From a virus (lineage: Duplodnaviria; Heunggongvirae; Uroviricota; Caudoviricetes), in IMG/VR virus record IMGVR_UViG_2740892441_000001: DNA of 64,000 nucleotides, one strand, 5' to 3'. Every line of letters begins with the position of its first letter. Within the stretch, counting starts at the first letter, position 1. Position numbers and translations under genes: made by a program. The notes under the pieces are model-generated. The model searched no databases and had not been told where the DNA came from. It worked only from the letters and a program-made list of their open reading frames with translations. Positions 24,029-28,357 of the stretch are shown here, one piece after another.

Positions 24029-24120
24029 TACATGAAAGAAACCCACTTAGTGCAACCGATCGAGACTCTTCACCAAACAAAAATATTTTTCTCAAATAAG
24101 AAAAGGCAGAAAACAAATTG

Positions 24121-24150
24121 TTTAAGGCCACTAGTTGTGGCCTTAATGGG
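24121..24150. terminator. Hairpin AAGGCCACTAGTTGTGGCCTT (terminator-like) after gene 24161-24685
   Basis: Stem-loop read directly; same family as 28300-28325. Confidence 0.4.
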
Positions 24151-25553: not shown

Positions 25554-25852
25554 TCGTCATCCTCATCCGAGTCATCCTCATCACAGGATGAGAGTAGTGG
25601 GTTAGTCATTCGCCCTACTTGAGTGGCGTAGCCACGCCGACAGAGATTGCGCAGCACACTGTATATTTCGAACATCTCGGTTCGTTCATCGCCAACATCA
25701 AGCTCAGATGCTATAGCGTGGCATTCAGTCGCGAGAGCCGATATTTTCTGAAATAACTCTGCTTTATTCACTCTTAGACTCCTGCGGAGGTTCTGGTAGC
25801 GGCATCCAGTGAGTTGCTTGCTCAATACCATTACCCGGCTTAATCGTTGCAT
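25550..25852 (-). CDS. Hypothetical protein with acidic C-terminal tail
   Basis: 100 aa ending CDEDDSDEDDE; start uncertain. Confidence 0.35.
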   Translation of the reverse strand: MQRLSRVMVLSKQLTGCRYQNLRRSLRVNKAELFQKISALATECHAIASELDVGDERTEMFEIYSVLRNLCRRGYATQVGRMTNPLLSSCDEDDSDEDDE

Positions 25853-26498
25853 CTCCGCGCCGAAAGGTGCTTCCGGTATAGCGTGCGGAGCATATTAGCG
25901 GTTCAACCAGAGAGCTATCGAAATTCACCGAAATAAGCACGTTCTGGCCCTTTTCAGGCATTCGCTCACTACAGCTTATCCAACCATCCGGAGTTACCGG
26001 ATTGTTGCCAGCCTCATACGCGACCCTTATCCAGTGCATAAGCATTTCAGTACTTACACATCCACAATCAACATCAATTTTGTCATGCTGCTGTTCCAGC
26101 CATTGCTCAAAAGTTAACTTGTAAGTTTGGCTTACAGGTTTGGCTTCCAGTTCTGCTATGTGATTTTTGGCTGATTCCAACTCAATCGACAATTTTTCCA
26201 ACTGCTCTTTATGATTTTTATATTCCTGATATGCGTGCCAAGACTGACCTTTGCGCACACTATCAGTGATATCAGCAACCTGCTCTGGTGTTAGCGTGGT
26301 CAGTGGCTGTGCTGGAAAAATCATCACTTGCCCGGCATCCCAATCAAAACCCGCCTGAATTGACTGAACCTCAACTGATGGTGTTGAACCGATGCGACCA
26401 GGCGAATGAACAACGATCGTTACATCCATATCGCGACGATGGCTGTGGTTGTTGGACAAAATACGATTCACCGACTCAGAAAATTTGGAAAATTTCAT
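25764..26498 (-). CDS. Hypothetical phage protein (DUF551-like C-terminus)
   Basis: Start set at MKFSKF; C-terminal WMPLPEPP segment typical of a common phage domain of unknown function. Confidence 0.5.
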
Positions 26499-26821
26499 GC
26501 TGACCCCTCTTTCTCTCCCCGGATAATTCTGTTGCACACATCCACACACTCGTCGCAGATGAAAACGGCGTCCCCAGCAATTAACTTTTTGACGGCGTAC
26601 TGGGATTTGTTGCAGAAGCTGCAACAAAGTGTTCGCCTGGCTGATAAGGATGGAGCGCCAGATGTCAGCCGCTCCATATCGTTCTTGCGACGCAATATCA
26701 CACGGCTGAACTCAACCAGTTTCTCCGGGGATATCTCCTCCTCCTCCGTAGCGAGCGTCTCTAGTCGTTCGAGTATGTGGAAGGCTTTTTCCTGGGTAAT
26801 TGCAGAATGCGATGTGGTCAT
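26495..26821 (-). CDS. Small protein with ClpX-type C4 zinc finger
   Basis: C-terminal [31 protein letters not shown] closely matches the ClpX N-terminal zinc-binding domain. Confidence 0.55.
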
Positions 26822-27434: not shown

Positions 27435-27874
27435 TGGATGACTCCTTTACGAAGCAGTTCAGCAATACTTACGCATATCTCTGCGCCTCTAATCAGCCCC
27501 GGAACGTTCTTGTTTGGCCCAACTTCACCATCAACAAAATCAATCATCGCGTTACGAGCCATATCCACGCCCTGCGCACGTACTTCAGCCAGAAAAGCAT
27601 CGGTAGCTGGAGTTTCGCTGTGGTGCAGGGCATCGTTGATAATCATTGCAGCAACTCCGGCCTGCCCTGCATCCGTGACCGACACATGCTCAAGAGTTAC
27701 GGCCATTGCGTGTTTCAGCCCAGCGTTCTCTGCCACCAGCGCAGCGAGATTAGTCTCAAGCTCTGAAATTCGGCACGTGGCATCAATATTTGTGTCCTCC
27801 AGCCGCTTAATTTCATCCAGTAGTGCCAGCACATCCTGCGGATGCTCTTCGACCTCTTCAAATTCTTCTTCCAT
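27431..27874 (-). CDS. Hypothetical protein (Ead/Ea22-like)
   Basis: 147 aa acidic coiled-coil N-terminus; start overlaps upstream stop. Confidence 0.45.
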   Translation of the reverse strand: MEEEFEEVEEHPQDVLALLDEIKRLEDTNIDATCRISELETNLAALVAENAGLKHAMAVTLEHVSVTDAGQAGVAAMIINDALHHSETPATDAFLAEVRAQGVDMARNAMIDFVDGEVGPNKNVPGLIRGAEICVSIAELLRKGVIQ

Positions 27875-27908
27875 ATATCACCTCAAATAAGTGGTTTGCT
27901 GCCTGAGC

Positions 27909-28238
27909 TTATTTTGCTTTGAGCAACTTCATCGCTTCGTCAATGCGTGATTGTGTCCCTGCGTTTGGCTCCACTACCTGAAGGCGGCGGGCATCTTCAA
28001 GAAGTTTCGCAATCATTTCTTTAAGTACTTCGTTATCGTTATTCATGAGCGTGCTCCTGTCAGTTAGCTTTGAGTAACGCGCCGCGATTTGCATCTCCAC
28101 GGTTCCGTCATGCAATGCAACAATCTCTCGGACAGCAACCGGGTGGTTGATGTAGTCTTCGCCGGTATATTTTCTTTTCTGACCAACGCCACCATGAGCG
28201 CCAGCGGCGAACATATGAGCTTCGGAAATACTAGACAT
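27909..28238 (-). CDS. HD-domain protein resembling the RelA/SpoT (p)ppGpp-hydrolase N-terminal region
   Basis: AHMFAAGAHGGVGQKRKYTGEDYINHPVAV...ALHDG matches the SpoT/Mesh1 hydrolase motif including the HD dyad; only 109 aa so possibly truncated. Confidence 0.5.
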   Translation of the reverse strand: MSSISEAHMFAAGAHGGVGQKRKYTGEDYINHPVAVREIVALHDGTVEMQIAARYSKLTDRSTLMNNDNEVLKEMIAKLLEDARRLQVVEPNAGTQSRIDEAMKLLKAK

Positions 28239-28357
28239 TCTTAACTCCGTTGTTTTCTAGTTGTGGTTATTTTCACAAATAAGAAAAGGCAGAAAACAAT
28301 TTATTCAAGGCCACAACTTATGGCCTTTATTTATTCATGCCGAAGGATTTGTAGCGT

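Follow-up and report, generated by a model that had tools for sequence, protein, structure and literature searches.

A 109-codon open reading frame in an Escherichia coli SSU5-like phage-plasmid as a very probable recombination scar joining a small alarmone hydrolase gene fragment to a lambdoid small gene

Can a phage reading frame of only 109 codons that scores as a RelA/SpoT-type HD protein still hydrolyse alarmones? The question is raised by positions 27909-28238 of the window (the whole 64,000-nucleotide stretch of viral DNA analysed here), where the first-pass annotation had placed an open reading frame (ORF) of 109 aa. That ORF was confirmed exactly: it lies on the minus strand (27909..28238), runs from ATG to TAA, and is preceded by a GGAG Shine-Dalgarno (SD) sequence at 28245-28248, 6 nt 5' of the start codon. 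GenBank labels the product as a hypothetical protein (AAW06_20340). Automated pipelines call the ORF an HD protein because, taken whole, it passes the gathering threshold of Pfam HD_4 (PF13328, RelA/SpoT-type HD domain), with 30.7 bits (E 3e-7) against a cut-off of 27.2 bits. The first sign of a chimera was a two-way split of the protein among PHROGs families, residues 4-55 matching 'phosphohydrolase' families (~1e-9) and residues 68-107 matching phrog_32391 (7.7e-27). On the evidence set out below, the ORF is very probably a scar left by recombination among the accessory genes of an E. coli SSU5-like phage-plasmid, made up of a small alarmone hydrolase (SAH) gene remnant, the read-through of a lambda-type N-gene leader and a lambdoid small gene.

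The hydrolase gene remnant and its surroundings

The window comes from an E. coli phage-plasmid of the SSU5-like type, and the DNA on either side of the ORF matches Escherichia phages CMS-2020a and Cyrano and Salmonella phage SSU5. All genes neighbouring the ORF are on the minus strand. Upstream are a DUF4942 gene (561 aa) and ORFs of 234 aa and 126 aa, the latter Eaa-like; the downstream side has two ORFs of Ead/Ea22-like type together with one ORF each for a ClpX zinc-finger and a DUF551 protein. The stand-alone ClpX C4 zinc-finger ORF (~107 aa; 26495-26821, minus) and the DUF551 ORF (25764-26498, minus) also occur in SSU5-like plasmids and in lambdoid prophages. A 61-bp terminator-like hairpin element (AAGGCCAUAAGUUGUGGCCUU followed by a U-rich tail; 28270..28330, minus) is located 32-92 nt upstream of the ORF start. 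It has the stem AAGGCCA...TGGCCTT and an RNA fold of -21.1 kcal/mol (z -3.46), recurs with 87% identity at 24087-24147 (minus), and is conserved upstream of the SSU5 HD gene and at the equivalent spot in Cyrano. Since homology to Cyrano and PhiR41_1 resumes at 28264, the hairpin element marks a module boundary in the accessory region. Scanning for promoters revealed no sigma-70-like site on the minus strand in the interval from the hairpin to the ORF.

The equivalent locus of SSU5 is SSU5_099 (YP_006906731.1), a 213-aa 'metal-dependent phosphohydrolase' with the GenBank name 'putative guanosine polyphosphate pyrophosphohydrolase/synthetase'. In E. coli plasmids belonging to this family the gene is also full-length, its 213-aa product being annotated 'HD domain-containing protein' (e.g. 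WP_021533175.1). A BLASTP comparison of the window ORF with SSU5_099 (213 aa) gave 49 identical residues out of 53 (92%; E 2e-34) across residues 1-53, and no similarity past residue 53. At the nucleotide level, the DNA from 28079 rightwards is 100% identical to the HD gene of E. coli plasmid CP024271; 171 of 171 plasmid matches start at 28079 (query base 230), as do the E. coli plasmid matches listed. By these two measures, codons 1-53 (28079..28238, minus) are the remnant of an HD_4, PaSpo-type SAH gene, of which 53 of 213 codons are retained. The remnant shares its start codon and SD sequence with the full-length SSU5 and E. coli phage-plasmid genes, as well as its genomic position, downstream of an Eaa-like gene and the conserved hairpin element. 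Descent of the 5' part from an SSU5-like SAH gene is thus confirmed, and the resemblance to SpoT/Mesh1-type hydrolases that had been noted for the first ~60 residues is real, but extends over 53; the earlier suspicion that the protein may be truncated was borne out.

The lambdoid segment and the junction

Immediately 3' of the remnant, residues 54-64 are an in-frame read-through of the 3' end of a lambda-type N-gene leader (…CGTTACTCAAAGCTAACTGACAGGAG…; 28047..28078, minus), a stretch which we take to resemble the ribosome-binding region of lambda N. The interval 28054-28114 matches the DNA immediately 5' of N in phage SfI (L003 2093-2154) and related lambdoid phages, and 27823-27902 matches DNA 3' of N; in an E. 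coli E94 prophage (L007) the same leader is found just 5' of a small ORF. An AGGAG SD sequence is present in the leader at 28054-28058, 7 nt before an internal ATG (28044-28058 for the whole span, minus). An Rfam scan of the whole window gave 0 matches, the N-leader fragment being too short for nutL.

The internal ATG opens a complete 45-aa small gene of the lambdoid pL-operon type (MNNDNEVLKEMIAKLLEDARRLQVVEPNAGTQSRIDEAMKLLKAK; 27909..28046, minus), equivalent to residues 65-109. These residues are a full-length match to phrog_32391 (profile positions 2-41 of 43), a family of 43-45 aa proteins from lambdoid prophage pL operons. The closest comparison is with an annotated 45-aa CDS of an E. 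coli EC12 prophage, at 95% nucleotide identity and with 43 of the 45 residues identical. Identity to a 43-aa CDS of the E94 prophage is 85% at the nucleotide level, with 8 codons differing synonymously and 5 non-synonymously; the numbers are small, and they are consistent with a real small gene. The gene has its own SD sequence and ATG, and the leader is that of the E94 copy and of SfI N. DNA of the small-gene region is matched by about 1,150 of 5,426 complete E. coli genomes. In EC12 the small CDS (L006 2538-2675) is directly downstream of N, and in E94 (L007 2501-2632) it is directly upstream of N, where it relies on the N leader and SD sequence. Because the gene lies on different sides of N in these two prophages, we suggest that phrog_32391 genes are mobile mini-cassettes inside pL operons. 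The window copy resembles the lambdoid members in its full length and in keeping the N-type leader SD sequence, but differs from them in its setting: it is in the ead/Ea22-type accessory region of an SSU5-like phage-plasmid, has no N gene beside it, and is fused in frame to the upstream gene fragment. The 45-aa small protein is plausibly the only functional coding unit left in the ORF, and could be made on its own or as the C-terminal end of the fusion.

The two parts meet at 28079..28084 in the hexamer GCGCCG, a microhomology common to both parents. Pairwise alignments against the HD parent type (L005) and the lambdoid parent type (L003/L007) indicate that the window follows lambdoid sequence left of 28079 and the HD gene from 28085. 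The hexamer forms the left end of a 36-bp patch (28079-28114) over which the HD gene (codons 42-53) and the N leader are ~78% alike, and which holds a 12-nt exact run, ATCTCCACGGTT. This patch may be either a chance similarity exploited by recombination or a vestige of older sequence common to both. In other SSU5-like plasmids the window DNA is present up to about 27616, leaving only ~27617-28078 specific to the window lineage. In the relative NZ_CP027369.1 the gene order is Eaa-like, HD (213 aa), three hypothetical genes, Ea22-like, ClpX zinc-finger and DUF551, which is likely to be the ancestral arrangement.

These comparisons suggest the following course of events. The ancestor would have had an intact 213-codon SAH gene followed by three hypothetical genes, as in NZ_CP027369.1, and a lambdoid pL-operon segment, consisting of the end of the N leader, the 45-codon gene and the start of an ead/Ea22-like gene, would have replaced everything past HD codon 53. 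The right-hand crossover would have been illegitimate, guided by the 6-nt GCGCCG microhomology within the 36-bp patch, and the left-hand crossover would probably have occurred in ead/Ea22-like sequence, which is common to both element types. By this exchange the window lineage would have lost HD codons 54-213 and the three genes, and gained about 460 bp of lambdoid DNA. In E. coli genomes, no uninterrupted stretch was found that could have donated the 25.8-28.1 kb block as a whole; the DUF551, ClpX zinc-finger and Ea22 part of that block is common to other SSU5-like plasmids. Since the leader, in its native context too (P0008), is open in the fusion frame, the joined pieces form a single ORF of 109 codons, and a 1-in-3 coincidence was all that the in-frame join needed. 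The event is of a known kind, affecting a known and experimentally characterised gene family, and what it left is an ordinary gene remnant. Its interest lies in resolving cleanly, to the base, a mosaic exchange between lambdoid prophages and SSU5-like phage-plasmids whose microhomology junction falls within a gene.

Possible roles of the fusion product

At least 12 contigs, drawn from six independent samples (ENA, NCBI and Logan), carry the exact 109-aa protein with the same neighbours each time, and 7.6 kb of the window are 100% identical to NCBI contig JUDX01000018.1 (108,886 bp). The chimera is a genuine allele of one lineage. The junction was found in none of the complete phage, plasmid and E. 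coli genome records searched. Given a good SD sequence, an intact frame and identity across several isolates, the fusion polypeptide is probably made. AlphaFold2 modelling of the 109-aa protein, from a shallow chimeric alignment of 14 sequences, gave a mean pLDDT of 55.5 and a pTM of 0.32, with 0 residues at or above 70 and isolated helices only; this absence of a confident fold is weak evidence taken singly, but it agrees with the sequence comparisons below.

A product that is made might have acquired a new, non-catalytic role, acting as a nucleotide- or partner-binding decoy or as an N-terminally extended lambdoid protein with altered activity or stability. We regard this as very unlikely. 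Maintenance of the open frame and its good SD sequence, the identical protein on so many contigs and the retained substrate-loop motif RK..G..Y..H all point in that direction, but the identity between contigs is what a recent clonal lineage would be expected to produce and carries no selection signal, and reading in frame across the join is accounted for by the coincidence described above. Moreover, the architecture occurs in none of the complete phage, plasmid and E. coli genome records searched, the shallow alignment yields no confidently predicted fold, and the existence of several other truncation alleles with unrelated tails argues for recurrent decay. The more specific proposal, that the chimera is expressed and kept because its SAH fragment, with the nucleotide-contacting RK..G..Y..H loop, confers such a function, we consider very improbable as well; binding or titrating an alarmone-related host factor would be one possibility, and altering the activity of the lambdoid small protein another. 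Were it true, the non-catalytic fusion would represent gene birth by phage mosaicism.

The scar reading also has to be weighed against the one with which we began, namely that the ORF encodes a functional, unusually small phage alarmone hydrolase with the HD at residues 43-44 as its catalytic dyad. Comparison with the full-length relatives leaves this reading almost no credibility. For SSU5_099 and its E. coli orthologue the HD_4 match spans profile positions 2-133 (about 68 bits), and both align over ~130 residues with Rel/SpoT hydrolase domains, Lmo0812 and human MESH1 (3NR1, 5VXA), and also with a (p)ppApp hydrolase (7SMG) and a small alarmone hydrolase (6Z3O). Their HD dyad occupies residues 56-57, the ED pair residues 60-61 and the KLAD..N motif residues 118-125; in the alignments LLHDVVEDT pairs with LLHDTVEDT of MESH1, and KLADLLDN (118-125) with KLADKLYN. 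Rel and MESH1 structures assign metal binding to the first His, the HD dyad and the distal Asp, and catalysis to the ED pair. We take H32, the HD dyad and the distal Asp of the phage-plasmid family to have the corresponding tetrad roles.

Measured against these proteins, the window ORF belongs to the SAH/RSH hydrolase family by homology of residues 1-53 only. It keeps H32 (the first metal-binding histidine), the conserved GQKRKYTGEDYINHP motif and the GQKRK..G..Y substrate-loop motif, which together with the HD_4 score and the HD dipeptide are what make a small hydrolase conceivable, but homology ends after A53, two codons short of the family HD dyad. From there the ORF continues RYSKLTDRSTLMNNDNE where its relatives have LLHDVVEDTHVTIEMV, and the position of LLHDVVEDT (about residues 54-63) reads RYSKLTDRS. 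One of the four ligands of the metal tetrad H...HD...D (H32, H56, D57 and D121 in SSU5_099 numbering) is left. The ED pair (HDxxED), present in all full-length relatives aligned, is missing, and the distal KLAD..N motif and ~100 residues of the helical core are also gone. The likeness to MESH1/HDDC3 (3NR1, 5VXA) and to the long RSH proteins (Rel, SpoT; 1VJ7, 5XNX, 6S2T) is confined to the N-terminal helix and the substrate loop (A)H.GQ.RK..G.PYI.HP, and solved SpoT/Rel hydrolase domains align with the ORF at residues 3-41 only. Whereas the full-length plasmid protein aligns with MESH1 through all catalytic motifs, the window ORF does so for only ~40-50 residues, ending before them. A complete HD_4 domain of ~130-150 residues of helical core is therefore absent: 53 of ~135 core residues remain, the other 45 residues of recognisable ancestry belong to an unrelated family, and the smallest solved relative found has 149 aa (7smg). 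Tested alone, the 53-aa fragment reaches 19.6 bits, under the HD_4 cut-off, with profile positions 1-44 of 156 matched. With these parts gone (HD dyad, ED pair, distal Asp/Asn and ~100 core residues), the 109-aa product is presumably not a (p)ppGpp or (p)ppApp hydrolase.

The HD dipeptide itself (L42-H43-D44, in ALHDGT) aligns with HG (WHG) in SSU5 and with HEA in human MESH1, in a non-catalytic loop; in the full-length E. coli orthologue this LHD also occurs, and the real dyad lies 12 residues beyond it. It is thus an incidental dipeptide in an inter-helix segment and not a metal ligand; as the true dyad it was ruled out by alignments to SSU5_099, the E. coli orthologue, MESH1 and Rel. A second HD_4 copy was not detected by tblastn in the window, which omits about 45 kb of the ~109-kb element. 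The first-pass annotation had included the HD dyad in the matching signature, which does not hold, and had named an incomplete HD fold lacking metal-binding residues as evidence against its own proposal; apart from H32, that is the situation found here.

An assembly or sequencing artefact, either a chimeric contig or a frameshifted intact HD gene, was considered after the junction proved absent from all finished genomes searched, and was dropped as having a negligible chance of being correct, because the exact protein recurs with its neighbourhood where different samples were assembled independently (ENA, NCBI and Logan), because L009 and the window agree at 100% along a 7.6-kb stretch, and because tblastn found no HD-homologous DNA downstream of the junction in any frame, which excludes a frameshift.

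Exchange at the hydrolase locus

The SAH of Salmonella phage SSU5, from the PaSpo subfamily of RelA-SpoT homologues, neutralised all five toxSAS toxins tested (Jimmy et al. 2020; PMC7229694). The tested protein was almost certainly SSU5_099, as SSU5 has a single HD_4 locus. The window copy, which differs from that gene and its orthologues in having no codons 54-213 (HD dyad, ED pair, KLAD..N and C-terminal extension), presumably cannot share this neutralising activity, and the suggestion that it encodes an alarmone hydrolase countering the host stringent response or alarmone-based defence is unsupported for this copy. The case calls for caution: the ORF scores above the Pfam HD_4 threshold and databases list it as an HD_4 protein, although H32 is the sole catalytic-motif residue kept; to tally it among phage anti-alarmone or anti-toxSAS genes would be a mistake. 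For alarmone biology the 109-aa ORF raises no new question.

Other truncated SSU5-type SAH alleles (P0003, P0004, P0005, P0011) have tails unlike one another, with lengths of 59 aa (8 contigs), 64 aa (32 contigs), 118 aa and 139 aa (139 contigs), and phage Cyrano is without an SAH gene altogether. Based on the present scar and these further truncations, the locus appears to be a hotspot of module exchange at which the SAH is often lost, suggesting that the gene is dispensable in the SSU5-like plasmid family. Where it is full-length, the SAH gene has a 4-nt overlap (ATGA) with a conserved gene of ~180 aa (SSU5_100, L001 1471-2022; L005 1980-2522; L014 2831-3373), an arrangement that suggests translational coupling and a possible functional partner. 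The ~180-aa gene is deleted in the window lineage, and tblastn found no homologue of it in the window. The 139-aa SAH allele keeps all catalytic motifs and might still be active.
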